NCBI GenBank assembly: GCA_964016885.1
Contig: CAXHJY010000332.1
Span: 1 to 57,781 of the forward strand
Length of the DNA stretch: 57,781 bases
Reading direction: 5' to 3'
DNA from: Eledone cirrhosa
Lineage: Eukaryota
Made by a program: the position numbers and the translations under genes. The notes under the pieces are model-generated. The model was not told the DNA's origin. It ran no database searches and saw nothing but the letters and a program-made list of their open reading frames with translations. Below are positions 2,751 to 45,547 of the stretch, one piece after another (within the stretch, counting starts at the first letter, position 1; every line of letters starts with the position of its first letter).

Positions 2751-5489
2751 CATCATCATCATCATCATCATCAGGTCTAGCGTCCGTGTTCCACGCTTGC
2801 ATGGGTTTGGACGGGGGCTTTCCCACTTGAGGCAAGAGTGGTTGTCTTGCTCGCATAGGACTGTCTGGCGGGTTTTCTACAGTTGGATGCCCTTCCTAAC
2901 ACCAACCACATTTACAGTGTGGGGCTGTGAGGTTTTTACCGTGTTGCCTACATGGCCACATTACAGCGTGGACTGTCTGGCGGGTTTTCTACAGCTGGAT
3001 GCCCTTGCTAACACCAACCACATTTACAGTGTGGGGCTGGGAGGTTTTTACCGTGTTGCCTACACGGCCACATTTACAGCGTGGACTGTGTGTTTTTTGT
3101 CGTGACACCTACACGATATCATTTGTTTCGGCCTGGATGTTGTGGGACCAACATAACTTTACATTGAAAGGGGCGGTGTGGGTGGGGTTGAGGTGGTGGG
3201 ACGGGGGTGTGTTTTGATAGAGATGCCTACTGACTGTAGTAGGTTTTTACTTTGTATTTAAGTAAGGCGGGTCTTCTCTATTACTGAGTACCGCCAAAGG
3301 TCTCGGTCCAGTGACATTGTCTTGGAGAGGTGTAAGCGTGTGAGGTCGGAATTTATCAGCTCGTCCCATGTTTTTCTGGGTCTGCCTACTCCGTGGCTAC
3401 CGTCTATCTTTATTGCCCTGCACTTTGTTATACAGCTGTCGTCTTTCATGCGCATCACGTGACCGTACCAACGTAGCCTTCTCTCGAGTAAACAACATCT
3501 GATCCCTCTTATCTCTAATTTTTTCCTTAGTTCGTTTATGCTTTGCCGTTCACGTATATTACTATTGCACATCCAGCGGAGCATGCAAGCTTCGTTCCTC
3601 TCTAGTTTGCGTATATCCTCTGCACACAATGCCCAGGTCTCACTGCCATGCAGCATTGCTGTTCGTATGCAGGCATCGTATAACCTGCCTTTCATTTTTA
3701 GGGAGAACCCTCTAGCGGCTAATAGTGGTATAAGCTCTCTGAACTTTTTCCATCCAGTTCTGACTCTAGCTACTGTACTTTCAGAGCACCCTCCCCCACT
3801 GCTGATTTTGTCACCCAGATAACGGAAGCTGTCCACTATTTCTATAGAACCCTCTGCGCAGTTGAAGGAGCTAGTATTTTGTGGGCACTTGCTGCTACTT
3901 ATTGCACCAGAGCACCGGCCACATGTAAAATCTATGTTCTTAGTTAGCTTACCTGTGATCCCACTACATCTTTTATGCACCCATACTTTGCATTTGGGAC
4001 ATAAAATGGAGTTTCTACCTACGCCTTTCCTACACACTGAGCATGGCCATTTCCCAGATGGGACCGCTGCCTTATTTTCTTTCCTACAAACTATAACTTT
4101 AGTCTTAGCCAGGTTAATTTTAAGGCCTTTTGATTCTAGGCCGTGCTTCCATGTTTGGAATTTCTTCTCTAGTTCGGTCATTGATTCAGCTATGAGCGTT
4201 AGATCATCTGCGTATAGGAGTTCCCATGGGCAGCCTGTCTTGAACTCCTCTGTTATAGCCTGAAGGGCAATAATAAATAGTAGGGGGCTAAGAACAGAGC
4301 CCTGATGGACACCAACTTTTACACTAAACTCTTCACTATATTCGTTGTTAATTCTAACCTTACTGACTGTTTCTTTATACATGGCTTGTATAGCTCTCAC
4401 AAGCCATTCGTCAACACCTAGTTTTCTAAGAGACCACCAGATAATGGAACGGGGGACTCTGTCGGAGGCTTTCTCCAAGTCGACGAAAGCTAAGTATAGG
4501 GGTTTACTTTTAGCTAGGTACTTCTCCTGTAGTTGTCGTACAATGAAAAGAGCGTCTGTGGTACTTTTGCCTGACACAAACCCGAACTGCATTTCATCTA
4601 GATCAATTCTCTCTCTGATTAGTTGCGCTATTACTTTTTCCGTGACCTTCATGACCTGGTCGATTAATTTAATGCCTCTATAGTTACTCCTATCTAGGGC
4701 ATCTCCTTTTCCCTTATAGCAGTTAACGATGATGCTGCTACGCCATGCCTTCGGAACAACCCCATTCTGTACGACTTGGTTAACTATCCGGGTGACCATG
4801 GTGTGTCCCACCGAACCAGATGCCTTCAGCATCTCAGCAACTATTTCCGAAGGCCCAGCCGCCTTACCCGTCTTCATATCTTTGATTGCCTTACTTATTA
4901 TACTACCTTCAACTAAAACTGCTGGTCCCTCTATTGGATCGATCTGGGGGAGACTGTCTTTCTCCCATTTGTTCTCCTCATTTAGAAGCCTTTCGTAGTG
5001 ACACTTCCAAGCTACCTTCTTATCAGCGTCGGTGATGGCAAGTATGCCATCATCGTTAAGTACACACTTCTCCCCGACAATATCACGGTTTTCCTTGACA
5101 CATTGCCTGGCAATCCTGAACACCTCACGTTTTTGAACATGCTTGAACTTTCTTTCCTCTGCTTCCCTTCTTGCGAAGTACACTTGTCTCCTAGCTTCCC
5201 TCCTGGCCACTTGATAGTCTTCTCTACTTCCCCCATCCCGCCATACTTTCCAAGCCTGCTTTTTGGCCTTAATTGACTCCTCCACCTTACTGTTCCACCA
5301 CCATGTTACTCTCCTCCTACCTACAGGCCTGCTCCAGCCACAGACTTCGTCTGCCGCCGTCAGCAGGTTTGCTCTCAGGAATTCCCACTGTTCCTCTATA
5401 TTATACGACTCTAATTGCTCTTCCTTACTGTCGAAAGCGTCAAGTAATATGCTTTGAAATTTATTTCTGGCCATGGGGTCCTTTAGCTT

Positions 5490-5492
<3 letters not shown>
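2749..5492 (-). mobile_element. RTE LINE family B, 5'-truncated
   Basis: RT ORF, 3'UTR with a duplicated AGGAAGGGCATCCA-type module, (GAT)n tail. Both ends lie in TA tracts. Confidence 0.95.
3258..5492 (-). pseudogene. Truncated RTE ORF2 (RT + PHD-like finger; no APE)
   Basis: Motifs YRGIKL, QFGF, FVDLEKA(S)DRV, GVHQGSVLSPLLF, LYADD, RRLRWYGHVMR, GRPRKTW. The N-terminal YIYI of the predicted ORF is microsatellite. Confidence 0.92.
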
Positions 5493-5588
<96 letters not shown>

Positions 5589-5590
5589 CA

Positions 5591-8879
<3,289 letters not shown>

Positions 8880-9741: not shown

Positions 9742-10044
9742 CATGGGTATAATCTGAAGCATATAGACAATATGCCCCCACACCCCCCACATCAAGGTGG
9801 TCATAGAGATACCACGGCAAAAAAGCACCCAGCCCACACTGTAAAGTGGACGTGTAGGCGCCACGAAAAAGCACCCAGCACTAACTGTAAATGAGGTTGG
9901 TGTTAGGAAGGGCATCCAGCTGTAGAAATCAAGCCAAATCAGTTCCTGTATGAGCAAGGCATGGTCAGCCGACCGGACACTGCCCACAACAGGACAACCC
10001 GTCTAACCCATGCTAGCGTGGAAGAACGAACGTAAAACGATGAT
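9742..10044 (+). mobile_element. RTE family A 3'UTR-only fragment
   Basis: Diverged match to 22367-22674. Confidence 0.88.
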
Positions 10045-10051
10045 ATATGTG

Positions 10052-10102
<51 letters not shown>

Positions 10103-10448
10103 GTGTATATCCATATATACATATATATACATATATACATATATATACATATATACATATATACATACATATATATACATATATGTATATATATATATAT
10201 ATGTATATATCCATATATACATATATATACATATATACATATATATACATATATACATATATACATACATATATATACATATATGTATATATATATATAT
10301 ATGTATATATCCATATATACATACATATATATACATATATACATACATATATATACATATATATATATATATATACATATATATATGTATATATCCATAT
10401 ATACATATATATACATATATACATATATATATATACATATATATATAC

Positions 10449-10511
<63 letters not shown>

Positions 10512-10687
10512 CATATATATATATATACATATATATATATACATATATACATATATATATATACATATATATATACACATATATACATATATATATATAC
10601 ATATATATATACATATATATATACATATATATATACATATATATATATACATATATACATATATATATATACATATATATATACATA
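10045..10687. repeat. Imperfect (TA)n/(TACA) microsatellite
   Basis: Directly visible. Confidence 0.97.
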
Positions 10688-11207
10688 TGAAACTTTTTCA
10701 TTATTTACTAAACCTTGTTTATATTTGTTCTGGCTCGTTAATTTATTAACCCGCCATTGAACCACACTGGCACTTGGTTGGACAATACATGCGTACCTTA
10801 GCGCCTTGTGCGTGAAAGGACGTATTTCATATTACTACTACCTCCACAAACGTTGAGAACAAACCGGGTCATTCCGACTGCTGCTGATAACAGCTGTGGC
10901 TAGTTTGACCTACCTCCTTTTGCCTCTATCTTTACTACGGCCCTTGATAATCCTGTTCTACATCATCCACTCTCATCCCAGGAACAGTCTTTGATAGCGC
11001 TAGTTTGTGATTTAAATTCAGGAATTTTATATTCTTTGAATGAAAAGAACCTTCTGACGAGAATCTCTCTTTGCAACGAAGGCCGTATGGCCTACGTTTT
11101 ATTTTTGGGATTCGAAACCGATCGGTAAAGGTAACTATAGTAGGTAAAGTCAATTTTTTAAAATTTATTTTGAAACTTTTTCATTATTTACTAAACCTTG
11201 TTTATAT
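10688..11207 (+). mobile_element. 483-bp non-coding unit with a 37-bp terminal direct repeat and a hammerhead (retrozyme or pLTR-like)
   Basis: TGAAACTTTTTCATTATTTACTAAACCTTGTTTATAT at 10688-10724 and 11171-11207. TA tracts on both sides. Confidence 0.75.
11049..11132 (+). ncRNA. Type I hammerhead ribozyme, canonical core
   Basis: ACCTT-CTGACGA-GAATCTC...(AACG-A-AGGCC-GTAT-GGCCT-A-CGTT)...GGGATTC-GAAA-CCGATCGG-TA-AAGGT. All three stems pair. Predicted cleavage after A11127. Confidence 0.9.
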
Positions 11208-11312
11208 ATATATACATATACATATGTATATATATACATATACATACGTATTATATATATACATACGTTTATATATATATACATATACATATGTATATAT
11301 ATATACATATAC

Positions 11313-14300
11313 ATACGTATTAGCGTTAAATTTAAGTATATGGATATTTACCATGCGACCCTCAGTTTCCCTGCTGTATTAGCGATAAATTTTCGAGGGT
11401 TTCTCTTAGTAGCTTTTTTCATGTCGTTAATATTATGATGTTCCCTGCTGTATTAGCGTTAAATTTTCCCTGCTGTATTAGCGATAAATTTTCGAGGGTT
11501 TCTCTTAGTAGCTTTTTCATGTCGTTAATATTATGATGTTCCCTGCTGTATTAGCGTTAAATTTTCCCTGCTGTATTAGCGATAAATTTTCGAGGGTTTC
11601 TCTTAGTAGCTTTTTTCATGACGTTATTATTGTTAATTTTACTGATGTAGTATTAACTTGGATATTTACCATGCGGTATTCTAATCCTATTGTATCTCTC
11701 TCAGTTATTTACCATGCGACCCTCAGTTCCTACCCCCCCCCCCCCTCTATGCACTTCTTTAAGGCTTACTACCCTGTCTTTAACCTAATTCATTCAATCT
11801 GAAAATATTGAAGAGATAAGACACTTTGCCATTCTTCTCTGCTAAAATGTACCACTGAGCTGATTCAAATTTTCCCAGCCAGCCATCCACCTAATCTACG
11901 AAGGTATTTTAGCCTACATATTGTCGTTAATATTATGATGTTCCCTGCTGTATTAGCGTTAAATTTTCCCTGCTGTATTAGCGATAAATTTTCGAGGGTT
12001 TCTCTTAGTAGCTTTTTCATGTCGTTAATATTATGATGTTCCCTGCTGTATTAGCGTTAAATTTTCCCTGCTGTATTAGCGATAAATTTTCGAGGGTTTC
12101 TCTTAGTAGCTTTTTCATGTCGTTAATATTATGATGTTCCCTGCTGTATTAGCGTTAAATTTTCCCTGCTGTATTAGCGATAAATTTTCGAGGGTTTCTC
12201 TTAGTAGCTTTTTTCATGTCGTTAATATTATGATGTTCCCTGCTGTATTAGCGTTAAATTTTCCCTGCTGTATTAGCGATAAATTTTCGAGGGTTTCTCT
12301 TAGTAGCTTTTTCATGTCGTTAATATTATGATGTTCCCTGCTGTATTAGCGTTAAATTTTCGTATATGGATATTTACGTATTAGCGTTAAATTTAAGTAT
12401 ATGGATATTTACCATGCGACCCTCAGTTTCCCTGCTGTATTAGCGATAAATTTTCGAGGGTTTCTCTTAGTAGCTTTTTTCATGTCGTTAATATTATGAT
12501 GTTCCCTGCTGTATTAGCGTTAAATTTTCCCTGCTGTATTAGCGATAAATTTTCGAGGGTTTCTCTTAGTAGCTTTTTCATGTCGTTAATATTATGATGT
12601 TCCCTGCTGTATTAGCGTTAAATTTTCCCTGCTGTATTAGCGATAAATTTTCGAGGGTTTCTCTTAGTAGCTTTTTTCATGACGTTATTATTGTTAATTT
12701 TACTGATGTAGTATTAACTTGGATATTTACCATGCGGTATTCTAATCCTATTGTATCTCTCTCAGTTATTTACCATGCGACCCTCAGTTCCTACCCCCCC
12801 CCCCCCCCCCTCTATGCACTTCTTTAAGGCTTACTACCCTGTCTTTAACCTAATTCATTCAATCTGAAAATATTGAAGAGATAAGACACTTTGCCATTCT
12901 TCTCTGCTAAAATGTACCACTGAGCTGATTCAAATTTTCCCAGCCAGCCATCCACCTAATCTACGAAGGTATTTTAGCCTACATATTGTCGTTAATATTA
13001 TGATGTTCCCTGCTGTATTAGCGTTAAATTTTCCCTGCTGTATTAGCGATAAATTTTCGAGGGTTTCTCTTAGTAGCTTTTTCATGTCGTTAATATTATG
13101 ATGTTCCCTGCTGTATTAGCGTTAAATTTTCCCTGCTGTATTAGCGATAAATTTTCGAGGGTTTCTCTTAGTAGCTTTTTCATGTCGTTAATATTATGAT
13201 GTTCCCTGCTGTATTAGCGTTAAATTTTCCCTGCTGTATTAGCGATAAATTTTCGAGGGTTTCTCTTAGTAGCTTTTTTCATGTCGTTAATATTATGATG
13301 TTCCCTGCTGTATTAGCGTTAAATTTTCCCTGCTGTATTAGCGATAAATTTTCGAGGGTTTCTCTTAGTAGCTTTTTCATGTCGTTAATATTATGATGTT
13401 CCCTGCTGTATTAGCGTTAAATTTTCGTATATGGATATTTACGTATTAGCGTTAAATTTAAGTATATGGATATTTACCATGCGACCCTCAGTTTCCCTGC
13501 TGTATTAGCGATAAATTTTCGAGGGTTTCTCTTAGTAGCTTTTTTCATGTCGTTAATATTATGATGTTCCCTGCTGTATTAGCGTTAAATTTTCCCTGCT
13601 GTATTAGCGATAAATTTTCGAGGGTTTCTCTTAGTAGCTTTTTCATGTCGTTAATATTATGATGTTCCCTGCTGTATTAGCGTTAAATTTTCCCTGCTGT
13701 ATTAGCGATAAATTTTCGAGGGTTTCTCTTAGTAGCTTTTTTCATGTCGTTAATATTATGATGTTCCCTGCTGTATTAGCGTTAAATTTTCCCTGCTGTA
13801 TTAGCGATAAATTTTCGAGGGTTTCTCTTAGTAGCTTTTTCATGTCGTTAATATTATGATGTTCCCTGCTGTATTAGCGTTAAATTTTCGTATATGGATA
13901 TTTACGTATTAGCGTTAAATTTAAGTATATGGATATTTACCATGCGACCCTCAGTTTCCCTGCTGTATTAGCGATAAATTTTCGAGGGTTTCTCTTAGTA
14001 GCTTTTTTCATGTCGTTAATATTATGATGTTCCCTGCTGTATTAGCGTTAAATTTTCCCTGCTGTATTAGCGATAAATTTTCGAGGGTTTCTCTTAGTAG
14101 CTTTTTCATGTCGTTAATATTATGATGTTCCCTGCTGTATTAGCGTTAAATTTTCCCTGCTGTATTAGCGATAAATTTTCGAGGGTTTCTCTTAGTAGCT
14201 TTTTTCATGTCGTTAATATTATGATGTTCCCTGCTGTATTAGCGTTAAATTTTCCCTGCTGTATTAGCGATAAATTTTCGAGGGTTTCTCTTAGTAGCTT

Positions 14301-17300
14301 TTTCATGTCGTTAATATTATGATGTTCCCTGCTGTATTAGCGTTAAATTTTCGTATATGGATATTTACGTATTAGCGTTAAATTTATGTATATGGATATT
14401 TACCATGCGACCCTCAGTTTCCCTGCTGTATTAGCGATAAATTTTCGAGGGTTTCTCTTAGTAGCTTTTTTCATGTCGTTAATATTATGATGTTCCCTGC
14501 TGTATTAGCGTTAAATTTTCCCTGCTGTATTAGCGATAAATTTTCGAGGGTTTCTCTTAGTAGCTTTTTCATGTCGTTAATATTATGATGTTCCCTGCTG
14601 TATTAGCGTTAAATTTTCCCTGCTGTATTAGCGATAAATTTTCGAGGGTTTCTCTTAGTAGCTTTTTCATGTCGTTAATATTATGATGTTCCCTGCTGTA
14701 TTAGCGTTAAATTTTCCCTGCTGTATTAGCGATAAATTTTCGAGGGTTTCTCTTAGTAGCTTTTTTCATGTCGTTAATATTATGATGTTCCCTGCTGTAT
14801 TAGCGTTAAATTTTCCCTGCTGTATTAGCGATAAATTTTCGAGGGTTTCTCTTAGTAGCTTTTTCATGTCGTTAATATTATGATGTTCCCTGCTGTATTA
14901 GCGTTAAATTTTCGTATATGGATATTTACGTATTAGCGTTAAATTTAAGTATATGGATATTTACCATGCGACCCTCAGTTTCCCTGCTGTATTAGCGATA
15001 AATTTTCGAGGGTTTCTCTTAGTAGCTTTTTTCATGTCGTTAATATTATGATGTTCCCTGCTGTATTAGCGTTAAATTTTCCCTGCTGTATTAGCGATAA
15101 ATTTTCGAGGGTTTCTCTTAGTAGCTTTTTTCATGTCGTTAATATTATGATGTTCCCTGCTGTATTAGCGTTAAATTTTCCCTGCTGTATTAGCGATAAA
15201 TTTTCGAGGGTTTCTCTTAGTAGCTTTTTCATGTCGTTAATATTATGATGTTCCCTGCTGTATTAGCGTTAAATTTTCGTATATGGATATTTACGTATCA
15301 GCGTTAAATTTAAGTATATGGATATTTACCATGCGACCCTCAGTTTCCCTGCTGTATTAGCGATAAATTTTCGAGGGTTTCTCTTAGTAGCTTTTTTCAT
15401 GTCGTTAATATTATGATGTTCCCTGCTGTATTAGCGTTAAATTTTCCCTGCTGTATTAGCGATAAATTTTCGAGGGTTTCTCTTAGTAGCTTTTTTCATG
15501 TCGTTAATATTATGATGTTCCCTGCTGTATTAGCGTTAAATTTTCCCTGCTGTATTAGCGATAAATTTTCGAGGGTTTCTCTTAGTAGCTTTTTCATGTC
15601 GTTAATATTATGATGTTCCCTGCTGTATTAGCGTTAAATTTTCCCTGCTGTATTAGCGATAAATTTTCGAGGGTTTCTCTTAGTAGCTTTTTCATGTCGT
15701 TAATATTATGATGTTCCCTGCTGTATTAGCGTTAAATTTTCGTATATGGATATTTACGTATTAGCGTTAAATTTAAGTATATGGATATTTACCATGCGAC
15801 CCTCAGTTTCCCTGCTGTATTAGCGATAAATTTTCGAGGGTTTCTCTTAGTAGCTTTTTTCATGTCGTTAATATTATGATGTTCCCTGCTGTATTAGCGT
15901 TAAATTTTCCCTGCTGTATTAGCGATAAATTTTCGAGGGTTTCTCTTAGTAGCTTTTTTCATGTCGTTAATATTATGATGTTCCCTGCTGTATTAGCGTT
16001 AAATTTTCCCTGCTGTATTAGCGATAAATTTTCGAGGGTTTCTCTTAGTAGCTTTTTCATGTCGTTAATATTATGATGTTCCCTGCTGTATTAGCGTTAA
16101 ATTTTCCCTGCTGTATTAGCGATAAATTTTCGAGGGTTTCTCTTAGTAGCTTTTTCATGTCGTTAATATTATGATGTTCCCTGCTGTATTAGCGTTAAAT
16201 TTTCGTATATGGATATTTACGTATTAGCGTTAAATTTAAGTATATGGATATTTACCATGCGACCCTCAGTTTCCCTGCTGTATTAGCGATAAATTTTCGA
16301 GGGTTTCTCTTAGTAGCTTTTTTCATGTCGTTAATATTATGATGTTCCCTGCTGTATTAGCGTTAAATTTTCCCTGCTGTATTAGCGATAAATTTTCGAG
16401 GGTTTCTCTTAGTAGCTTTTTTCATGTCGTTAATATTATGATGTTCCCTGCTGTATTAGCGTTAAATTTTCCCTGCTGTATTAGCGATAAATTTTCGAGG
16501 GTTTCTCTTAGTAGCTTTTTCATGTCGTTAATATTATGATGTTCCCTGCTGTATTAGCGTTAAATTTTCCCTGCTGTATTAGCGATAAATTTTCGAGGGT
16601 TTCTCTTAGTAGCTTTTTCATGTCGTTAATATTATGATGTTCCCTGCTGTATTAGCGTTAAATTTTCGTATATGGATATTTACGTATTAGCGTTAAATTT
16701 AAGTATATGGATATTTATTTACCATGCGACCCTCAGTTTCCCTGCTGTATTAGCGATAAATTTTCGACGGTTTCTCTTAGTAGCTTTTTTCATGTCGTTA
16801 ATATTATGATGTTCCCTGCTGTATTAGCGTTAAATTTTCCCTGCTGTATTAGCGATAAATTTTCGAGGGTTTCTCTTAGTAGCTTTTTTCATGTCGTTAA
16901 TATTATGATGTTCCCTGCTGTATTAGCGTTAAATTTTCCCTGCTGTATTAGCGATAAATTTTCGAGGGTTTCTCTTAGTAGCTTTTTCATGTCGTTAATA
17001 TTATGATGTTCCCTGCTGTATTAGCGTTAAATTTTCGTATATGGATATTTACGTATTAGCGTTAAATTTAAGTATATGGATATTTACCATGCGACCCTCA
17101 GTTTCCCTGCTGTATTAGCGATACATTTTCGAGGGTTTCTCTTAGTAGCTTTTTTCATGTCGTTAATATTATGATGTTCCCTGCTGTATTAGCGTTAAAT
17201 TTTCCCTGCTGTATTAGCGATAAATTTTCGAGGGTTTCTCTTAGTAGCTTTTTTCATGTCGTTAATATTATGATGTTCCCTGCTGTATTAGCGTTAAATT

Positions 17301-19014
17301 TTCCCTGCTGTATTAGCGATAAATTTTCGAGGGTTTCTCTTAGTAGCTTTTTCATGTCGTTAATATTATGATGTCCCCTGCTGTATTAGCGTTAAATTTT
17401 CCCTGCTGTATTAGCGATAAATTTTCGAGGGTTTCTCTTAGTAGCTTTTTCATGTCGTTAATATTATGATGTTCCCTGCTGTATTAGCGTTAAATTTTCG
17501 TATATGGATATTTACGTATTAGCGTTAAATTTAAGTATATGGATATTTACCATGCGACCCTCAGTTTCCCTGCTGTATTAGCGATAAATTTTCGAGGGTT
17601 TCTCTTAGTAGCTTTTTTCATGTCGTTAATATTATGATGTTCCCTGCTGTATTAGCGTTAAATTTTCCCTGCTGTATTAGCGATAAATTTTCGAGGGTTT
17701 CTCTTAGTAGCTTTTTTCATGTCGTTAATATTATGATGTTCCCTGCTGTATTAGCGTTAAATTTTCCCTGCTGTATTAGCGATAAATTTTCGAGGGTTTC
17801 TCTTAGTAGCTTTTTTCATGTCGTTAATATTATGATGTTCCCTGCTGTATTAGCGTTAAATTTTCCCTGCTGTATTAGCGATAAATTTTCGAGGGTTTCT
17901 CTTAGTAGCTTTTTTCATGTCGTTAATATTATGATGTTCCCTGCTGTATTAGCGTTAAATTTTCCCTGCTGTATTAGCGATAAATTTTCGAGGGTTTCTC
18001 TTAGTAGCTTTTTCATGTCGTTAATATTATGATGTTCCCTGCTGTATTAGCGTTAAATTTTCGTATATGGATATTTACGTATTAGCGTTAAATTTAAGTA
18101 TATGGATATTTACCATGCGACCCTCAGTTTCCCTGCTGTATTAGCGATACATTTTCGAGGGTTTCTCTTAGTAGCTTTTTTCATGTCGTTAATATTATGA
18201 TGTTCCCTGCTGTATTAGCGTTAAATTTTCCCTGCTGTATTAGCGATAAATTTTCGAGGGTTTCTCTTAGTAGCTTTTTTCATGTCGTTAATATTATGAT
18301 GTTCCCTGCTGTATTAGCGTTAAATTTTCCCTGCTGTATTAGCGATAAATTTTCGAGGGTTTCTCTTAGTAGCTTTTTCATGTCGTTAATATTATGATGT
18401 TCCCTGCTGTATTAGCGTTAAATTTTCCCTGCTGTATTAGCGATAAATTTTCGAGGGTTTCTCTTAGTAGCTTTTTCATGTCGTTAATATTATGATGTTC
18501 CCTGCTGTATTAGCGTTAAATTTTCGTATATGGATATTTACGTATTAGCGTTAAATTTAAGTATATGGATATTTACCATGCGACCCTCAGTTTCCCTGCT
18601 GTATTAGCGATAAATTTTCGAGGGTTTCTCTTAGTAGCTTTTTTCATGTCGTTAATATTATGATGTTCCCTGCTGTATTAGCGTTAAATTTTCCCTGCTG
18701 TATTAGCGATAAATTTTCGAGGGTTTCTCTTAGTAGCTTTTTTCATGTCGTTAATATTATGATGTTCCCTGCTGTATTAGCGTTAAATTTTCCCTGCTGT
18801 ATTAGCGATAAATTTTCGAGGGTTTCTCTTAGTAGCTTTTTTCATGTCGTTAATATTATGATGTTCCCTGCTGTATTAGCGTTAAATTTTCCCTGCTGTA
18901 TTAGCGATAAATTTTCGAGGGTTTCTCTTAGTAGCTTTTTTCATGACGTTATTATTGTTAATTTTACTGATGTAGTATTAACTTGGATATTTACCATGCG
19001 ACCCTCAGTTCCTA
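11313..19014. repeat. Satellite array: 98/99-bp monomer with ~463-bp higher-order repeat
   Basis: Each monomer contains CCCTGCTGTATTAGCG twice. A ~69-bp spacer starts at 12361, 13426, 13889, 14352, 14913, 15278, 15741, 16204, 16667, 17036, 17499, 18062 and 18525. A ~300-bp long spacer lies at ~11620-11920 and ~12681-12986. Confidence 0.97.
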
Positions 19015-22000
19015 CCTCACAATTTCCCTCCCCCCCCACCCCCACACACCACCATAGTCTATTCGACCAATCAAACCTAGCATGCCATTTCCACTGCTGC
19101 TGCTGCTACTACCTGCCTAACTAACTCTCTCCTCCTCTGGCGCATCCCAACACACCCTGCCATTACCCCACCACCACTGTCCTTCTAGCCCTCAATTTTC
19201 CCACCGTTAGGGATGGATGAGCTGGGAATACACGAGCAACTCTGAATCAATAGATGAAATATGAATCTGCGAGCTACCAAGCACCCACGTGAAGCGCCAA
19301 CCCAGAGACCCTCCCCTACGAGTGTCGACAAATGCCCAAAACTCCGAGTTGGTACCATCAATGTAGGCTCAATGAAAGGAAGAGCAGGAGAAATCGTAGA
19401 AATGCTAGAGCGAAAGGAAGTTGATGTATGCTGTGTGCAAGAGACTAGATGGAGAGGAGGGTCTGCTAGAGTCCTTGTAGGAAAAAGCCAGTGCTACAAA
19501 TTTTTCTGGGTGGGAAATGACGATGGGATGGGTGGTGTAGGTATACTATTAGCTGACAAGTGGGTAGATAAAGTAATCTCAGTGTACAGGGTAAATGCAA
19601 GAATCATTAAACTCAGACTAGTCCTGAATAAGACAATTACCACAATAATATCAGCTTACGCACCCCAATCGGGGCTGCCAGACGAACTTAAGGATAGGTT
19701 TTACGAGTCCCTAATACACACTACTGCTCTAACAGACGACAAGGACTTCCTAATCATTGCAGGAGATTTTAACGGACACGTAGGTAAACACTGCGACGGC
19801 TTCAATAGAGTACATGGAGGCCATGGAGTTGGCACAAGGAATGAGGAAGGATTCAGACTTCTAGAATTCTGCGACGCCAATGACATGTCGATATGTAACA
19901 CAAACTTTAAAAAACCCGACAACCACCTGATCACCTATAGATCAGGGGAGCACTCTAGTCAGTTAGATTTTATCCTCATCAGAGGACGTGACAGATGGAC
20001 GGTCGTAAACACAAAAGCCTTCCCTAGTGAGGAATGTACATCCCAACATAGCTTAGTTGTCAGCGACCTCACGGTCAGAACTAGACGAGCCCTGAAACAG
20101 AGGCCAACCTGGAGAAGAAAGATCTGGAAGCTGAAAGTCCCCTCAACCAGTAACAGATTTAAAGATATTTTACTCAACGCCTACGACAGTAAAGAAGAAC
20201 AGATAGAGACATTTAACGTAGAAGAGAACTGGGAGTTCCTAAAAAATAACTTACTAGAGGCGACGGATGAGGTTTGTGGTTGGAGTAAGACCTCAAGCAG
20301 GAGGAGAGTGACTTGGTGGTGGAACAATAAGGTAGATGAAGCAGTCAAGGCCAAGAGACAGGCATGGAAAGAATGGAAGAACGGGGGGAGCAGGGTACAT
20401 TACATAGAGACCAAGAGGGAAGCTAGGCGACAAGTATACTTAGCTAGGAGGGAAGGAGAGGATAGAAAATTCAAGCATGTTTTACAACGTGAGGACCAGA
20501 AACAGGAGGTATTCAAGATTGCGAGGCAGTGTGTCAGAGATAGTTGTGATGTCATTGGAGAGAAGTGTATCCGGAATGATAAAGGTGAGCTTGCCCTCAC
20601 AAGTGCTGAGAAGAAAGATGCATGGAAGAGTCATTATGATAGATTACTAAATGAGGAGAATGCATGGGAAGAAGAGACCCTACCCCACGTAGACCCTATA
20701 GAGGGACCAGCAGTACAAGTCAGCGGCAGCGTAGTAAGTAAGGCAATCAGAGATATGAAGATAGGGAAGGCAACCGGTCCATCGGGTATAGCTGCCGAGA
20801 TGCTGAAGGCATCTGGGTCTGTAGGTCACACTATAACCACACGTATCGTTAACCAGGTAATACTAGAGGGGGCCATACCAAAAGATTGGTGCAGTAGCAT
20901 CATTGTCAACTGCTACAAAGGTAAAGGCGATGCACTAGATAGAGGAAACTATAGAGGTATAAAGTTGATGGACCAGGTCATGAAAGTAACAGAAAGAGTT
21001 ATAGCACAGCTGATTAGGGACCGGGTGAATATAGACGAGATGCAATTTGGGTTTGTTCCAGGGAAAGGCACCACTGATGCGCTCTTCCTTGTGAGGCAAT
21101 TACAGGAAAAGTACCTAGCTAAAAGTAAGCCACTCTACTTGGCATTTGTCGACCTTGAGAAAGCCTTTGACAGAGTTCCACGTGCAGTAATCTGGTGGGC
21201 TCTTAGAAAACTAGGAGTAGATGAATGGCTTGTGAAAGCGGTACAAGCCATGTATAGGGGAGCAGTCAGCAAAGTTAGGATTGGCAATGAGTATAGCGAG
21301 GAATTTAGCGTACAGGTTGGGGTCCACCAGGGCTCTGTTCTTAGCCCTCTCCTGTTCATCATAGTCCTGCAGGCAATAACGGAGGAGTTTAAGACCGGAT
21401 GCCCATGGGAACTCCTGTATGCTGATGACCTCGCACTCATAGCTGAATCTATGGTAGAACTAGAGAATAAATTCCAAACCTGGAAGCAGGGACTAGAGAG
21501 AAAGGGCCTCAAAGTCAACATGACAAAGACTAAGGTCCTTATAAGTAGACGAGAAAACAGAACCCAGATCCCCTCAGGGAAATGGCCTTGCTCAGTATGT
21601 AGGAAAGGTGTAGGTAGGAACTCCATTCTTTGCCCCAAATGCAAACAATGGGTACACAAGAGATGTAGCGGGATCTCAGGAAGCTTAATTAAGAATGTAG
21701 GATTCACATGCAGCAGCTGTGCTGAAACAGCAAGCAAACAGCCACAGGAAACAAGTACCACCAATCTCTGGGAGGGCCCTGTAGAAACAGTAGACAGCTT
21801 CTGCTACCTAGGTGACCGAATTAGCAACGGAGGTGGGTGCTCAGAAAGTACAATAACTAGGGTAAGAACGGGATGGAAGAAGTTTAGGGAACTACTACCA
21901 CTGCTAGCTGCAAAAGGCTTCTCCCTCAGAATGAAAGGCAGACTGTATGATGCGTGTATCCGAACAGCGATGTTGCATGGTAGTGAGACCTGGGCGCTGA

Positions 22001-22674
22001 AGGTGGAAGACTTACGTAGATTAGAGAGAAACGAAGCCTGCATGCTCCGATGGATGTGTAACAGTAATATACGTGAACGACAAAGCATAAATGAATTGAG
22101 AGAGAGACTGAGCATAAGAGGAATCAAATGCTGCGTGCAGGAGAGGCGGTTACGCTGGTATGGACATGTGATGCGTATGAAGGATGACAGCTGCATAAAA
22201 AGGTGCAGAGCACTAGAAGTTGATGGAAACCGCGGAGTGGGGAGACCCAAGATGACTTGGGATGAGGTGATAAAAGCCGACCTTACCCAACTACACCTCT
22301 CAAAGTCAATGACACACGACCGTGACTTCTGGCGTCACGCAGTAATACAGGGTACCCGACCTCCCATGGGTACATGCTGAAGCATATAAACAATATGCCC
22401 CCCCCCCCCACCGCAAGGTGGTCGTGGAGGTGCCACGGCAAAAAAGCACCCAGCCCACACTGTAAAGTGGACGTGTAGGCGCCACGAAAAAGCACCCAGC
22501 ACTCACTGTAAATGAGGTTGGTGTTAGGAAGGGCATCCAGCTGTAGAAATCAAGCCAGATCAGTTCCTGTATGAGCAAGGCATGGTCAGCCGACCAGACA
22601 CTGCCCACAACAGGACAACCCGTCTAACCCATGCTAGCGTGGAAGAACGGACGTAAAACGGTGATGATGATGAT
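19015..22674 (+). mobile_element. Apparently full-length RTE-clade LINE (family A)
   Basis: C-rich 5' leader, single APE-RT ORF, ~290-bp 3'UTR, (GAT)n tail into a TA tract. The 5' boundary is approximate. Confidence 0.93.
19261..22380 (+). CDS. RTE ORF2: AP endonuclease + reverse transcriptase + PHD-type zinc finger, 1039 aa, uninterrupted
   Basis: APE motifs GTINVGSM, CVQETRW, SAYAPQ, GDFNGHVG, LDFIL, SQH. RT motifs FVDLEKAFDRV, QGSVLSPLLF, LYADD. Finger CSVC..CPKC..HKRC..CSSC. RTE C-terminal RLRWYGHVMR and GRPKMTW. Confidence 0.95.
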   Translation: MNLRATKHPREAPTQRPSPTSVDKCPKLRVGTINVGSMKGRAGEIVEMLERKEVDVCCVQETRWRGGSARVLVGKSQCYKFFWVGNDDGMGGVGILLADKWVDKVISVYRVNARIIKLRLVLNKTITTIISAYAPQSGLPDELKDRFYESLIHTTALTDDKDFLIIAGDFNGHVGKHCDGFNRVHGGHGVGTRNEEGFRLLEFCDANDMSICNTNFKKPDNHLITYRSGEHSSQLDFILIRGRDRWTVVNTKAFPSEECTSQHSLVVSDLTVRTRRALKQRPTWRRKIWKLKVPSTSNRFKDILLNAYDSKEEQIETFNVEENWEFLKNNLLEATDEVCGWSKTSSRRRVTWWWNNKVDEAVKAKRQAWKEWKNGGSRVHYIETKREARRQVYLARREGEDRKFKHVLQREDQKQEVFKIARQCVRDSCDVIGEKCIRNDKGELALTSAEKKDAWKSHYDRLLNEENAWEEETLPHVDPIEGPAVQVSGSVVSKAIRDMKIGKATGPSGIAAEMLKASGSVGHTITTRIVNQVILEGAIPKDWCSSIIVNCYKGKGDALDRGNYRGIKLMDQVMKVTERVIAQLIRDRVNIDEMQFGFVPGKGTTDALFLVRQLQEKYLAKSKPLYLAFVDLEKAFDRVPRAVIWWALRKLGVDEWLVKAVQAMYRGAVSKVRIGNEYSEEFSVQVGVHQGSVLSPLLFIIVLQAITEEFKTGCPWELLYADDLALIAESMVELENKFQTWKQGLERKGLKVNMTKTKVLISRRENRTQIPSGKWPCSVCRKGVGRNSILCPKCKQWVHKRCSGISGSLIKNVGFTCSSCAETASKQPQETSTTNLWEGPVETVDSFCYLGDRISNGGGCSESTITRVRTGWKKFRELLPLLAAKGFSLRMKGRLYDACIRTAMLHGSETWALKVEDLRRLERNEACMLRWMCNSNIRERQSINELRERLSIRGIKCCVQERRLRWYGHVMRMKDDSCIKRCRALEVDGNRGVGRPKMTWDEVIKADLTQLHLSKSMTHDRDFWRHAVIQGTRPPMGTC

Positions 22675-24945: not shown

Positions 24946-27375
24946 CTTTGAATAACTTTGAAATGTTTTGGCCAGTATTGGCCCAGGCCATGTCTAACTT
25001 AATAGCACCACCTGGCGAAGTCTTTCAATTCAGGATTTGGGCACCATGGCCCATTCGAGAAGAGAATTACTGTTTGCGGAGACATATCCGGGTGTGGGTG
25101 GTTTGTCCGGGATTACTTGGAGGAATTTGTCCAAAGACTTCTTGAATGTTGTGTGGTCAGTTTCTGTTTTGACGTGTCCTGGTGTGATGTTGAAGAGAGC
25201 AGGGCCGATTGAGGTGAAATAATTGTGCCGTATTGTTGTTATGAGTTGCGATTTAGATTTTTGAATGGGACGGATAGCACGGGGCCCAAGCCTTGGGTGT
25301 ATCTTGAAGGCGATGCCAACATCATTTGGGCAGTGATGATGGAACATTTTCCACATCATGCAGATAATATAACGCTCACGGCGACGTTGGAGTGAGTAAA
25401 GTTTCAGGTTTTCTAATCGACCCCAGTAGTCAAGGTCTGACATGCCATCTATCTTTTTCGTGATTGCCCTTTGAGGAGCTTCAAGTTTCATAATACTTTG
25501 TTTCGTGTGGGGAGACCACAGTGGACAACAGTATTCAAGGTGTGGTCGGGCAAAAGTAGAGAAGAGAAGGATAATGGTGCGGGAATCTCTCGACTGGAAG
25601 GTTCTGAGGATCCAGGAACACATTCTGCGGGCCATGTCAACTTTGCTGCTTATATGCGTGGTCCAGCTTATGTTGCTGTCCACGGTTACTCCCAAGTCTC
25701 TGATGTTGTTAGATGCCACGAGAGTTTCCCCGGAGGGAAGGGAGTACGGGAGTTTCAGAGCATCCTCTTTTCCAAAGTGGATCAGTTCGAATTTGTCTTC
25801 GTTCAGTAACATGTTGTTCTTTTCTGCCCATTGGGTAACAGCCAGTAGGTCTGACTGAAGGCTTATCCGGTCATCCACGCCATTGATGACCTTTTGGAGC
25901 TTGGAATCATCAGCGAAAATTTTAATGTTGCTGTGTTTGATGATGTCAGTGATGTCATTAATATAGATGATGAAGAGAAGTGGGCCCAACACAGTGCCTT
26001 GTGGGACCCCACTACTGACTTTGGCTGGGCTTGATTTGACTCCCTCAACTACAACATGTTGGGTTCTGTTTGACAGGAAGCTCTTGATCCACTGCAGCAG
26101 CTTTCCAGTGACACCAATATTGGACAGCTTTCTCAGTAGAATGTTATGATCAACCCTGTCAAAGGCCTTGCTGAAATCAAGGTAGATAACATCAGTGTTG
26201 GAACCCTCTCCCAAGGCTCTCAAAATGTCATCAAAGTGATGCAGTAGCTGCGTCAGGCAATCCCTTCCATTACGGAATCCATGCTGGTTGGAGTTCAGCA
26301 TATTGTTACCCTCAAGGAAGTGGGTCATTCGCGATCTCACCACTCTCTCAAATACCTTAATGATATGAGAGGTGAGTGAGATTGGACGGTAATTCACGGC
26401 AAGGGATTTGTTTCCCTTTTTGAAAACTGGGACAACAGACTGGGATAGAAGGTTTTCTGGCACATATCCAGCATCCAGTGAGTTCCGCCACAGATTGGCA
26501 AGAGGAGATGCAAGTTGGTGTTGACACGCCTTCAAGACACAAGCAGGGAACCTATTGGGACCTACTGCTGAATTATGCTTGATTTCCTTTATTGCCGCCA
26601 AGACATCAGGGGCGCCAAACGTTATGTCCGATAAGGTGTAATGGGGAGTAACATCGCCGATACAGCCCAGATCGGCCATATCAGGATTGCTGAAAACAGA
26701 GCAGTATTGTTTCTGCAGTATCTCACCCATGGTTTTAGCATTGTCTTGAAGAGTGCCATTTTCATCAATTAGAGGGCCAACAGTAGAGCCAGTGATTTTG
26801 TGTTTTTTTGCAAATGAAAAGAACACTTTGGGATTGAGTTTGATCTTCTCAATGGCCCAGGCCTCTTCAGCTCTTCTCTGATTGTTGATGAGGGACATTA
26901 TGTTGTTTTGGAGGTTATGTTTTTTAATCTCTAGTGATGAAATGGCAGTCAAGTTGATGTGTTGCTGCTGACAGTATTTCAGCTTGTTGATTTTTTTGTT
27001 CGTTCTCTTAATTTTTCTGATGAGCGTTTTTCTATTTCTAGGGATTCTGCTCTTAGATTTGTTTTTAGTTCTTAATGGGGTGTGTTTAGCACATATGTTT
27101 GTAACAGTGTCCACAAATGTCTGCCAGGACTTTTTGATGTTAGTGGGTGTATGAGTGTGCGTGAAGGACCAGTCGACATGTGCAAGATCATGACTGATCG
27201 CTTCCCAGTTTGCATTGTGGAAATCCATAGCGTCAAACGGATGGACAGGAGAGATGACATTGGGTTTGTATATTGGACGGTGGAATCTCAGATCACAGAG
27301 AACCATGTCATGATCAGAGAGTAGAGTTTTCTCCACTGCAATATTGTGGATATTGTCAGTGTGATTGCTGAAAAT
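24943..27375 (-). mobile_element. CR1-group LINE, 5'-truncated
   Basis: RT ORF, short 3'UTR ending in a tandem TCAAAGTTAT repeat next to a TA tract. Near-identical to 34318-36977. Confidence 0.9.
25030..27336 (-). CDS. CR1-group ORF2 remnant (end of APE + RT), 768 aa open frame
   Basis: [60 protein letters not shown]. Confidence 0.88.
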
Positions 27376-27390
27376 ATATATATATATATA

Positions 27391-27425
<35 letters not shown>

Positions 27426-27436
27426 GTATGTATTTG

Positions 27437-27475
<39 letters not shown>

Positions 27476-27521
27476 ATGTGTGTATGTATGTATGCATGTG
27501 TGTATATATATATATATATAT

Positions 27522-29361
27522 ATCAGAGAGAGAATTGATCTAGATGAAATGCAGTTCGGTTTTTCATTGTACGACAACTACAACAGAAGTACCTAGCTAA
27601 AAGTAAACCCCTATACTTAGCTTTTGTTGACATGGAGAAAGCCTTCGACAGAGTCCCCAGTTCCATTATCTGGTGGGCTCTTAGAAAACTAGGTGTTGAC
27701 GAATGGCTTGTGAGAGCTATACAAGCCATGTATAAAGAAACAGTCAGCAAGGTTAGAATTAACAACGAATATAGTGAAGAGTTTAGTGTAAAAGTTGGTG
27801 TACATCAGGGCTCTGTTCTTAGCCCCCTACTATTTATTATTGCTCTTCAGGCCATAACAGTGGAGTTCAAGACCGGCTGCCCATGGGAACTCCTATACGC
27901 AGATGATCTAACGCTCATAGCTGAATCAATGGCCGAGCTAGAGAAGAAATTCCAAACATGGAAGCACGGCCTAGAATCAAAAGGCCTTAAAATTAACCTG
28001 GCTAAGACTAAAGTTTTAGTTTGTCGGAAAGAAAATAAGGCTCCGGTCCCTTCCGGGAAATGGCCATGCTCAGTGTGTAGGAAAGGCGTAGGTAGAAACT
28101 CCATTTTATGTCCCAAATGCAAAGTATGGGTGCATAAAAGACGTAGTGGGATCACAGGTAAGCTAACTAAGAACATAGATTTTACATGTGGCCGGTGCTC
28201 TGGTGCAATAAGTAACAGCAAGTGCCCACAAAATACTAGCTCTTTCAATTGCGCAGAGGGTTCTATAGAAATAGTGGACAGCTTCCGTTACCTGAGTGAC
28301 AAAATCATCAGTGGGGGAGGGTGCTCTGAAAGTACAGTAGCTAGAGTCAGAACTGGATGGAAAAAGTTCAGAGAGCTTATACCACTATTAGCCACTAAAG
28401 GGTTCTTCCTAAAAATGAAAGGCAGGTTGTATGATGCCTGCATACGAACAGCAATGTTGCATGGCAGTGAGACCTGGGCATTGTGTGCAGAGGATATACG
28501 CAGACTAGAGAGGAATGAAGCTTGCATACTCCGCTGGATGTGCAATAGTAACATACGTGAATGGCAAAGCATAAGCGAACTAAGGAAAAAATTAGAAATA
28601 AGAGGGATCAGATGTTGTTTACTCGAGAGAAGGTTACGTTGGTATGGTCACGTGATGCGCATGAAAGACGACAGCTGTATAACAAAGTGCAGGGCAATAA
28701 AGATAGACGGTAGCTACGGAGTAGGCAGACCCAGAAAAACCTGGGACGAGCTGATAAATTCCGACCTCACACTCTTACACCTCTCCAAGACAATGTCACT
28801 GGACCGAGACCTTTGGCGGTACTCTGTAATAGAGAAGACCCGCCTTACCTAAATACAAAGTAAAACCTACTACAGTCAGTAGGCATCTCTAACAAAATAC
28901 ACCCCATCCCACCACCCCCACCCCATCCACACCGCCCCTTTCAATGTAAAGTTATGTTGGTGCCACAACATCCAGGCCAAAACAAATGAGATCGTGTAGG
29001 TGTCACGACAAAAAAAACACACAGTCCACGCTGTAATGTGGCCGTGTAGGCAACACAGTAAAAACCTCCCAGCCCCACACTGTAAATTTGGTTGGTGTTA
29101 GGAAGGGTATCCAGCTGTAGAAAACCCGCCAGACAGTCCATGCTGTAATGTGGCCGTGTAGGCAACACGGTAAAAACCTCCCAGCCCCACACTGTAAATG
29201 CGGTTGGTGTTAGGAAGGGCATCCAGCTGTAGAAAACCCGCCAGACAGTCCTATGCGAGCAAGACAATCACTCTTGCCTCAAGTGGGAAAACCCCCGTCC
29301 AAACCCATGCAAGCGTGGAACACGGACGTTAAACGATGATGATGATGATAATGATGATGAT
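27522..29361 (+). mobile_element. RTE family B, 5'-truncated (ORF remnant 27632-28852)
   Basis: Close match to 3258-4620 with a short deletion near 27560. Duplicated 3'UTR module and (GAT)n tail. Confidence 0.93.
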
Positions 29362-34318: not shown

Positions 34319-36977
34319 TTGCCTCAACAGCATAAAGTGTTTCATCCAAGAGTGTCACCCTGACAACATCTTAATGATGGGGGACTTCAACCTCCCCGGA
34401 GTTGACTGGTCCACAAACACCCTGCCACCAGGTTCTTCTGCCTCAACCTCTGACAGGGAAGCTGTGGAATCGCTTCTTGACTTCATGGATGATTTCTTCC
34501 TATCCCAACTAGTGCTTGAACCAACGAGGTACCACAAAAACGTCCTAGACTTAATTTTCAGCAATCACACTGACAATATCCACAATATTGCAGTGGAGAA
34601 AACTCTACTCTCTGATCATGACATGGTTCTCTGTGATCTGAGATTCCACCGTCCAATATACAAACCCAATGTCATCTCTCCTGTCCATCCGTTTGACGCT
34701 ATGGATTTCCACAATGCAAACTGGGAAGCGATCAGTCATGATCTTGCACATGTCGACTGGTCCTTCACGCACACTCATACACCCACTAACATCAAAAAGT
34801 CCTGGCAGACATTTGTGGACACTGTTACAAACATATGTGCTAAACACACCCCATTAAGAACTATAAACAAATCTAAGAGCAGAATCCCTAGAAATAGAAA
34901 AACGCTCATCAGAAAAATTAAGAGAACGAACAAAAAAATCAACAAGCTGAAATACTGTCAGCAGCAACACATCAACTTGACTGCCATTTCATCACTAGAG
35001 ATTAAAAACATAACCTCCAAAACAACATAATGTCCCTCATCAACAATCAGAGAAGAGCTGAAGAGGCCTGGGCCATTGAGAAGATCAAACTCAATCCCAA
35101 AGTGTTCTTTTCATTTGCAAAAAAACACAAAATCACTGGCTCTACTGTTGGCCCTCTAATTGATGAAAATGGCACTCTTCAAGACAATGCTAAAACCATG
35201 GGTGAGATACTGCAGAAACAATACTGCTCTGTTTTCAGCAATCCTGATATGGCCGATCTGGGCTGTATCGGCGATGTTACTCCCCATTACACCTTATCGG
35301 ACATAACGTTTGGCGCCCCTGATGTCTTGGCGGCAATAAAGGAAATCAAGCATAATTCAGCAGTAGGTCCCGATAGGTTCCCTGCATGTGTCTTGAAGGC
35401 GTATCAACACCAACTTGCTTCTCCTCTTGCCAATCTGTGGCGGAACTCACTGGATGCTGGATATGTGCCAGAAAACCTTCTATCCCAGTCTGTTGTCCCA
35501 GTTTTCAAAAAGGGAAACAAATCCCTTGCCGTGAATTACCGTCCAATCTCACTCACCTCTCATATCATTAAGGTATTTGAGCGAGTGGTGAGATCGCGAA
35601 TGACCCACTTCCTTGAGAGTAACAATATGCTGAACTCCAACCAGCATGGATTCCGTAATGGAAGGGATTGCCTGACGCAACTACTGCATCACTTTGATGA
35701 CATTTTGAGAGCCTTGGGAGAGTGTTCCAACACTGATGTTATCTACCTTGATTTCAGCAAGGCCTTTGACAGGGTTGATCATAACATTCTACTGAGAAAG
35801 CTGTCCAATATTGGTGTCACTGGAAAGCTGCTGCAGTGGATCAAGAGCTTCCTGTCAAACAGAACCCAACATGTTGTAGTTGAGGGAGTCAAATCAAGCC
35901 CAGCCAAAGTCAGTAGTGGAGTCCCACAAGGCACTGTGTTGGGCCCACTTCTCTTCATCATCTATATTAATGACATCACTGACATCATCAAACACAGCAA
36001 CATTAAAATTTTCGCTGATGATTCCAAGCTCCAAAAGGTCATCAATGGCGTGGATGACCGGATAAGCCTTCAGTCAGACCTACTGGCTGTTACCCAATGG
36101 GCAGAAAAGAACAACATGTTACTGAACGAAGACAAATTCGAACTGATCCACTTTGGAAAAGAGGATGCTCTGAAACTCCCGTACTCCCTTCCCTCCGGGG
36201 AAACTCTCGTGGCATCTAACAACATCAGAGACTTGGGAGTAACCGTGGACAGCAACATAAGCTGGACCACGCATATAAGCAGCAAAGTTGACATGGCCCG
36301 CAGAATGTGTTCCTGGATCCTCAGAACCTTCCAGTCGAGAGATTCCCGCACCATTATCCTTCTCTTCTCTACTTTCGCCCGACCACACCTTGAATACTGT
36401 TGTCCACTGTGGTCTCCCCACACGAAACAAAGTATCATGAAACTTGAAGCTCCTCAAAGGGCAATCACGAAAAAGATAGATGGCATGTCAGACATTGACT
36501 ACTGGGGTCGATTGGAAAACCTGAAACTTTACTCACTCCAACGTCGCCGTGAGCGTTATATTATCTGCATGATGTGGAAAATGTTCCATCATCACTGCCC
36601 AAATGATGTTGGCATCGCCTTCAAGATACACCCAAGGCTTGGGCCCCGTGCTATCCGTCCCATTCAAAAATCTAAATCGCAACTCATAACAACAATATGG
36701 CACAATTATTTCACCTCAATCGGCCCTGCTCTCTTCAACATCACACCAGGACACGTCAAAACAGAAACTGACCACACAAAATTCAAGAAGTCTTTGGACA
36801 AATTCCTCCAAGTAATCCCGGACAAACCACCCACACCCGGATATGTCTCCGCAAACAGTAATTCTCTTCTCGAATGGGCCATGGTGCCCAAATCCTGAAT
36901 TGAAAGACTTCGCCAGGTGGTGCTATTAAGTTAGACATGGCCTGGGCCAATACTGGCCAAAACATTTCAAAGTTATT
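34318..36977 (+). mobile_element. CR1-group LINE, 5'-truncated, with a frameshift near 35005
   Basis: APE remnant (GDFNLP, LDLIF, SDH) and RT ORF 35030-36898. The A-run at ~35004 is one base shorter than in the 25030-27336 copy. Confidence 0.9.
35030..36898 (+). pseudogene. CR1-group RT, downstream part of the frameshifted ORF2
   Basis: Near-identical to the 25030-27336 protein. Confidence 0.88.
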
Positions 36978-42163: not shown

Positions 42164-42322
42164 ATATTGTTATACTTTGGGAGGGTCATGTTGCCAATAA
42201 GAAACACACGCACCAGTTGCTTTCACTTCAATTTAATTTAATATATATTTATAAATTTACAAATTTATAAATTTCTGGTTGGTTGGTTGGTTCCACAACC
42301 AGATAGTTGTTTATATATATAT

Positions 42323-42367
42323 AGTCATAGTTCTTTCGTCACACACTCTGTGACCTCTTCAGTGACT
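42323..42367 (-). ncRNA. Minimal type I hammerhead of PLE family 1
   Basis: Reverse complement of 48536-48580. Confidence 0.85.
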
Positions 42368-42661
42368 GGGGATTTCTTTCGTTTCTGTGCCTTTCCTTTC
42401 TTCTATCCTACGCCATTTTGTTTGTGTGTGGGTTGCGTGCTCAGTTTGCGCATGCGCCACATCCGGGTGTCTGTGTGTGTTTGTGTTCATTTTTCTATTT
42501 TTCTATTTATATTTGTTTGTTTATTTATTTATTTATTGTTGGTTGGTTGTTTGTTCTATGTGTGTGTGTGTTTTCATTTTGTCTTGTGTGTGTTTTCATT
42601 TTGTGTGTGTTTTCAATTGTAAGTTGTTTGTTCTATGTGTGTGTGTGTTTTCATTTTGTCC

Positions 42662-44965: not shown

Positions 44966-45547
44966 TGTATCTGGGTATGTTGCTATTGTTTTTGTTATTG
45001 TTGTTTGTGTCTGTGTGTCTGTTGTTGTTGGGATGTGTGTTGTATATGTGTGTGCGTATATTGTTGCTTTTGTTTTTGTTTTTGATGCTCCAGCGTAGTT
45101 TCGTAAATGATTTTTCTATTTCTGACAGGAAATAGAAAAATCATTTACGAAACTAGAAAAATCATTTACGAAACTACGCTGGAGCATCAAAAACAAAAAC
45201 AAAAGCAACAATATACGCACACACATATACAACACACATCCCAACAACAACAGACACACAGACACAAACAACAATAACAACAACAATAGCAACATACCCA
45301 GATACAACACCAACAATAGCAACATACCCAGATACAACAGACACGCAGACACAAACAACAATAACAACACACACGGAGACAACAATAACAACAACACACA
45401 CATCAACAACAACAACAGCAACATACCCAGATACAACAACAACAGACACGCAAACACAAACAACAATAACAACACACACACACACACGGAGACAACAACA
45501 CACATCAACAACAACACACATCAACAACAACAACACACACACATTCA

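Follow-up and report, generated by a model that had tools for sequence, protein, structure and literature searches.

For metazoan non-LTR retrozymes, a circular RNA template and a helper enzyme from Penelope-like elements (PLEs) have been proposed (Cervera and de la Peña, 2020, PMC7229834; Li et al., 2026, bioRxiv 10.64898/2026.07.22.740005), and both the retrozyme-PLE link and the rolling model are already in print as hypotheses. The hammerhead repeat family of Eledone cirrhosa described here shares with these elements its non-coding tandem units, a type I hammerhead motif (HHR), low GC content and co-existing PLEs, and its stem III of 2 bp plus a tetraloop is as described for invertebrate retrozymes. 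The unit of 483 bp lies above the 150-450 bp given in PMC7229834 and within the 51-972 bp of bioRxiv 10.64898/2026.07.22.740005. Circular RNA has been shown for coral, mussel and axolotl retrozymes; for the Eledone family it is a prediction. The parts of this literature drawn on here do not mention, for metazoan retrozymes, strict (TA)n targeting, a pair of fixed 3' ends, arms placed head-to-head or a single haplotype in each insertion, and in the openly accessible literature within our search we found no report of two-site ends or per-insertion haplotypes for a retrozyme.

The second close system is formed by the EN+ PLEs (PMC8557442, PMC3846280, PMC11167929), with which the family has in common a truncated 5' end, an arrangement in tandem and inverted copies, a pair of internal start sites, a tail at one end only and microsatellite targets. 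Unlike EN+ PLEs, the retrozyme has no ORF and its tail measures 108-113 nt instead of 30-40 bp; in addition, its inverted junctions are not the palindromic fold-backs proposed in PMC3846280. Non-autonomous Chlamys elements such as MRC1 are likewise non-autonomous PLE derivatives with multicopy head-to-tail insertions, but they generally resemble an autonomous family at their 3' end, and most Chlamys elements are described without HHRs (PMC8557442).

In this study, we analyzed a 520-nt element within a 57,781-nt stretch of E. cirrhosa DNA (contig CAXHJY010000332.1, hereafter the window). We propose, with a probability of roughly 0.65, that it is a 5'-truncated copy of a non-LTR retrozyme, here a non-coding hammerhead repeat of high abundance, laid down by a PLE enzyme that copied a predicted 483-nt RNA circle. 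The family as such is very probably a PLE-mobilised non-autonomous retrozyme. Judged by its sequence, it displays the testable features of a non-LTR retrozyme and appears to insert like a PLE. The feature in the window is real, yet its value rests in the family rather than in this copy.

The repeat unit and its hammerhead motif

An earlier note on this DNA had reported an exact 37-bp direct repeat with a period of 483. We re-found it at 10688-10724 and 11171-11207, where identity stops on both sides without extension and the final 4-5 nt (TATAT) are indistinguishable from the TA flank. The copy thus spans 1.08 units, and the TA flanks seen on either side are (TA)n-type microsatellites (Table 1). 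About 160 bp to the right of the element starts a satellite of 98/99-bp subunits with a ~463-bp higher-order repeat (window 11366-18956). The absence of a credible ORF holds as well, since the unit, when treated as circular, contains 8-14 stops per turn in each of its six frames and the longest Met-initiated frame is 24 aa; a rolling ORF on the circle was found in none of the frames.

Table 1. Coordinates of the element and its flanks in the window.
Feature	Position	Strand	Remark
Complete non-coding unit, 483 bp, unit positions 1-483	10688..11170	+	
Partial terminal unit, positions 1-37, stops at fixed 3' site A	11171..11207	+	
Type I hammerhead motif (HHR); stem II long, stem III formed by the palindrome CCGATCGG; cut predicted directly 3' of A11127	11049..11132	+	
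Predicted AU-rich hairpin 1, immediately 5' of site A; predicted in family 2 too	11139..11192	+	Not recovered by RNAalifold
Predicted hairpin 2 (GTTCTGG...CCATTGAAC), between both end sites	10727..10762	+	7 pairs, no covariation
Predicted hairpin 3, immediately 5' of site B	10785..10825	+	Some two-sided changes in the alignment
Site B, second fixed 3' end of the family, unit 143-150	10830..10837	+	Read through in the window copy
Left junction ATATGAAA, 8 nt of the site B reverse complement	10685..10692	-	
Left (TA)n-type microsatellite target	10043..10687 (TA-type tract 10043-10688)	.	
Right (TA)n-type microsatellite target	11208..11315 (TA-type tract 11203-11315)	.	

Stem I of the HHR is formed on the + strand by ACCTT (11049-11053) pairing with AAGGT (11128-11132), and the core consists of CTGACGA (11054-11060) and GAAA (11114-11117). 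Both the extended stem II (11061-11113, with 7 bp at its base) and the palindromic stem III (CCGATCGG, 11118-11125) noticed earlier are present, the latter followed by T11126-A11127, a layout from which the cut site is predicted. The motif had been called the best-formed hammerhead in the window, and it indeed has the most stem II and III base pairs among the five motifs of our motif scan, which missed a sixth near 48541.

Folding gives modest support to the HHR, and the comparison with a second family (see below) supports it better. The isolated 106-nt HHR region reaches a folding z of only -1.7, stem I has a pair probability of only 5-7% in the full-circle fold, and RNAalifold on 11 sequences yielded a weak consensus that missed hairpin 1. 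Rfam gave no hammerhead match for the unit at E<=10 and, among the 150 matches listed out of 376 for the window, microsatellite-driven miRNA matches only. This poor population of the HHR in the predicted circle fold and the lack of Rfam recognition speak against the circle-copying reading. The palindrome has a pairing energy of -18.6 kcal/mol between two molecules versus -1.9 within one, and cleavage is therefore likely to proceed as a dimer via the palindrome, as described for HHRs with a short stem III (PMC7229834). The sequence of hairpin 2 is almost invariant across both families, and the hairpin is a candidate recognition element.

Because the window copy carries a single HHR (a 'monomer' in the terms of Li et al., bioRxiv 10.64898/2026.07.22.740005), it is unable to release a circle itself by double cleavage. 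It is an ordinary short member of the family and a dead-end product. At its left junction, ATATGAAA is possibly a vestigial second arm joined via a TGAAA microhomology; such a match to site B is expected at 4 of 483 random breakpoints and was spotted post hoc.

Two fixed 3' ends in a dispersed family

The 29-nt HHR core has 1,129 exact matches in the 3.0-Gb genome (control: 0), in dispersed arrays of up to about 10 units, and the family is also contained in contigs of X1 and X4; no RNA dataset was among the sequencing runs listed as containing it. Searches with variant cores added 114 and 267 matches, of which 60 loci were read, mostly belonging to family 2. Our set of 86 family-1 insertions combines 49 from 48 successive loci along C1 (the first 100 of the exact core matches) with 37 from the best-scoring young copies of a search in which 40 of 1,773 candidates were scored; two family-2 matches in L105 and one arm truncated at the edge of L072 were dropped. 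The resulting 128 arms measure 0.09 to 10.1 units. Assignment of the unit to the non-LTR retrozyme type, as suggested before, agrees with the type I HHR with conserved core in each unit (Rfam: no match), the short tandem units with at least two HHRs per array in the family and the lack of coding capacity. An LTR organisation is not seen: 5' ends vary, units are in tandem and no internal region separates terminal repeats. Two loci (L057, L071) hold a subfamily about 11% from the window unit with arrays only 0.2% divergent internally, implying that several subfamilies were active recently.

Family 2, which was found by the stem III pattern alone, is 48% identical to family 1 and likewise keeps units of ~480 bp. 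It has CTGATGA upstream, and in most variants stems I and II are kept by different base pairs, while a T-T pair closing the foot of stem II, or a stem I that is short, occurs in some. The pattern GAAACCGATCGGTAB had 4 matches versus 3 in the control, three of them family variants and one unrelated. Sequences of both families are directly joined or adjacent at L111 and at L194. In the L114:1410-1517 region on C1, a family-2 arm stops at site A and joins a mid-ORF fragment of a Neptune-type PLE with no TA run between them, suggesting either a nested insertion or a template switch.

The 3' ends of the arms are fixed: 73 of the 128 stop at site A (unit position 30-41), 50 at site B (unit 126-153, mostly 145, 147 or 150, a spread to which a few alignments stopped early in diverged copies contribute) and 5 elsewhere. 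The two sites used by these 123 arms are 108-113 nt apart, and most ends at either site run into TA. Genome-wide, 584 matches reach the site A end and then TA, versus 865 that read through into the unit. The 5' ends are spread round the unit in a near-uniform way (KS p=0.06). As the 3' ends are fixed and the 5' ends alone vary, the '37 bp' is an accident of truncation: the window copy is an arm of the site-A kind, truncated at its 5' end 37 nt beyond a full turn. The fixed 3' ends also reject free circular permutation; the expectation that other copies would be multimeric was borne out, but that of circularly permuted copies was not. A 446-bp insert between the copies of a 37-bp target-site duplication would produce an exact direct repeat too, but this explanation, which the earlier note had raised against itself, has a negligible probability and was rejected, given that the 37-mer is unit sequence present in every unit and that the same end recurs at those 584 places. 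Within (TA)n a target-site duplication is unreadable.

Almost half of the insertions (42/86) are head-to-head, combining 5' truncation with an inverted 5' copy as in PLEs, and they obey a two-site rule: 38 have one A and one B end, one is A+A, none is B+B and three have one other end (p=7e-11). Accordingly, 38 of the 39 with both ends at these sites use one of each, leaving a tail at one end of the inverted insertion, another PLE-type trait. The walk along C1 alone gives 15/16 A+B (p=2.5e-4). Short inverted B-type arms spotted later in L015, L047, L065 and L099 are outside these counts. Family 2 has the same two ends, and its 7 resolved head-to-head copies are all A+B (the L114 arm reaching site A without a TA run). 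In both families a predicted hairpin directly precedes each end on the 5' side, and a near-invariant hairpin lies between the ends, while none of the other TA motifs (unit 57, 341 and 449) serves as an end in the analyzed insertions; the choice of site thus looks structural as well as TA-dependent. Fold-back self-priming of the second arm was considered and rejected, since arm lengths exclude it in 6 of 38 events and arm breakpoints are uncorrelated, the arms mostly abutting or overlapping by a few bases. Both arms are therefore best read as first-strand cDNAs primed at the two ends of a break.

One haplotype per insertion and the nature of the template

Among 42 young insertions, 47 haplotype markers are fixed over all covering units and 6 are mosaic. 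For long segments, 40/44 markers are fixed versus 5% (at most 14%) after shuffling, 22/27 markers hold in both arms, and six private variants are present in all covering units of the insertion that carries them. A looser pairwise measure that includes hotspot sites gives 119/154 concordant comparisons (shuffled: 10%), and 48/71 across arms. If one monomer, likely in circular form, was copied repeatedly, such a single haplotype per insertion would be expected.

One rival reading, unlikely but not negligible, retains two-site priming by a PLE but on linear RNA, either an uncleaved multimer transcribed from master arrays that are homogeneous or a chain of cleaved monomers linked by template jumps. 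It agrees with the Anolis PLE, for which unprocessed RNA is the main in vitro substrate (PMC11167929), and with the 8 of 9 Xenopus retrozyme dimers without cleavage (bioRxiv 10.64898/2026.07.22.740005). Near the cut site, 5' ends are mildly in excess (10 vs 4.8 expected, p=0.02; scan p=0.18), and cleaved linear RNA may therefore have served as template in some cases; a few arrays are mosaic (markers in 5 of the 42 young insertions, one of which, L089, probably reflects an alignment-edge effect). However, internal priming on a linear multimer only shortens arrays, and each new homogeneous haplotype therefore needs a monomer-to-multimer step; as the 37 multi-unit insertions display 25 fixed haplotypes, this step must have occurred many times. 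In addition, the cut site is crossed without any change within 5 nt in 140 of 141 cases, and template jumping in a mixed pool would leave mosaics switching at the cut site, of which none was seen.

Alternatively, short copies may insert and tandem arrays grow later by unequal crossing-over in the manner of minisatellites, a scenario of local growth favoured in bioRxiv 10.64898/2026.07.22.740005. Local expansion fixes private variants too, and in L041 and L080 variants are common to adjacent units, for which conversion, local duplication or a linear template is needed. Later growth is nevertheless quite improbable here: only 4 variants are partly shared, versus 74 singletons and 48 fixed ones, many young arrays have an internal divergence of 0-0.4%, and in 13 of 38 head-to-head insertions each of the two arms is longer than one unit, the arms mostly having markers in common. 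Fixed haplotypes, rare partly shared variants and clean crossings of the cut site would be explained most simply by a circle, and a circular template is, on balance, probable. Copying of a monomer circle, as in the earlier proposal that RT travelled slightly more than once round a 483-nt circle, is the best reading. The choice offered there between such a circle and a pLTR tandem is not exclusive: the insertions bear PLE signatures, yet no ORF is attached in the copies examined.

Candidate helpers and a possible mechanism

Two PLE families, termed Neptune-type and Hydra-type after the motifs given in PMC8557442 and not from a tree, are active here and serve as autonomous controls. In the Neptune-type PLE, all 7 resolved head-to-head insertions have one of each end, ~58 nt apart; in the Hydra-type PLE the same is true for 11/11 resolved among 15 regions, with ends ~115 nt apart. 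A young head-to-head PLE of Neptune/Nematis type is present in the window (42167-48794), with an N-rich ORF (a 1278-aa frame in full copies), an HHR-like motif near 48541, a one-sided tail of ~58 nt and 65 near-identical matches scored. Both autonomous PLE families also occur in multi-unit tandem arrays with periods of 4,286 bp (L166+L167, C1526) and ~3,600 bp (L260+L261, C22), in both arms of head-to-head insertions, as in the retrozyme. Elsewhere in the window, HHR-bearing ends and an endonuclease fragment resemble several Hydra-type PLE families (53475-53626 (-), 53276/53353, 24423, 54665-55048 (-)), the end at 53626 stopping at its own family's site A. LINE-type RT frames with a C-terminal PHD-finger match lie at 3258-5606 (-), 19258-22380 (+), which also has an AP endonuclease, and 27548-28852 (+), and two more RT frames at 25030-27522 (-) and 35006-36898 (+).

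The Hydra-clade PLE of this genome comprises a 785-aa frame in a ~3.6-kb unit (L249, L252) with RWK, DKT, CxCX5C, CxxC and CxH motifs; Pfam assigned no family to the 785-aa protein. It shares with the retrozyme the (TA)n target, an HHR-like motif, ends at a similar distance, one of each end per head-to-head insertion, and young near-identical copies. It differs in being autonomous, and its sequence similarity to the unit is marginal: its A-B region aligns with z=3.6 to family 1 and z=0.4 to family 2, with an offset of ~25 nt in the position of its B site. As parents, the Neptune-type PLE of the window (no blastn similarity between its pLTR and the unit, tail of 58 nt), a C-rich PLE family (30 loci) and a second Hydra-type family (one copy) were rejected, the own sequences of the latter two being without similarity to the unit. 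Tail length and target favour a Hydra-clade helper, and this PLE would be the likeliest candidate, at about even odds for a Hydra-type helper.

The unit might also be the pLTR of an unseen autonomous PLE, with the arrays as its truncated insertions. Every insertion signature is PLE-like (PMC8557442), and our searches covered a sample of copies. In that sample no RT plus GIY-YIG ORF, as in an autonomous EN+ PLE, was attached to the unit in register (86 family-1 insertions, 64 core-pattern loci), nearby PLE fragments are mid-ORF pieces mostly beyond a TA run, and wherever copies were examined, sequence that ran beyond site B went on into the unit. Moreover, two families only 48% identical both maintain their unit length. 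The pLTR explanation is improbable.

For the preferred reading, we envisage that arrays with at least two HHRs would be transcribed and the transcripts cleaved, probably as dimers via the palindrome, after which monomers would be ligated into circles. A PLE protein would cut (TA)n, and the two DNA ends would prime within the unit at A and B, both of which directly follow a predicted hairpin on its 3' side. Each cDNA would then travel round the template for a variable distance before both are joined at short microhomologies; in the window copy, the A-primed strand would have gone 520 nt and the B-primed strand almost nowhere. Against this preferred reading, the Anolis PLE displayed in vitro the same start-site behaviour on both strands and did without HHR cleavage (PMC11167929). 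More tentatively, and at less than even odds, a dimeric Hydra-clade enzyme may prime both ends of the break on one retrozyme RNA circle, with one subunit per structure-marked site and both polymerases rolling and displacing cDNA.

The spread of animal retrozymes is debated between rolling reverse transcription of circles by a PLE enzyme and local amplification (2026 preprint), and how PLEs come by their tail and inverted arms is likewise unsettled. This young family supplies quantitative genomic footprints in the form of the two-site rule and the single haplotype of each insertion, together with a minimal template of 483 nt and a candidate for an active helper. These make a direct in vitro test possible and bring the mechanistic question within reach of a concrete experiment. 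As a tool, too, a PLE enzyme able to write a small circle into (TA)n in tandem would be of interest. The footprints of the family are genomic evidence of unusual clarity for a rolling-circle mechanism of the kind proposed for PLE enzymes. If true, the single dimeric-enzyme mechanism would account for the arrays of retrozymes, for the PLE tail at one end only, for arms in head-to-head arrangement and for the multi-unit arrays that PLEs form themselves, and the intermediate of PLE transposition would be a ribozyme-made circle.
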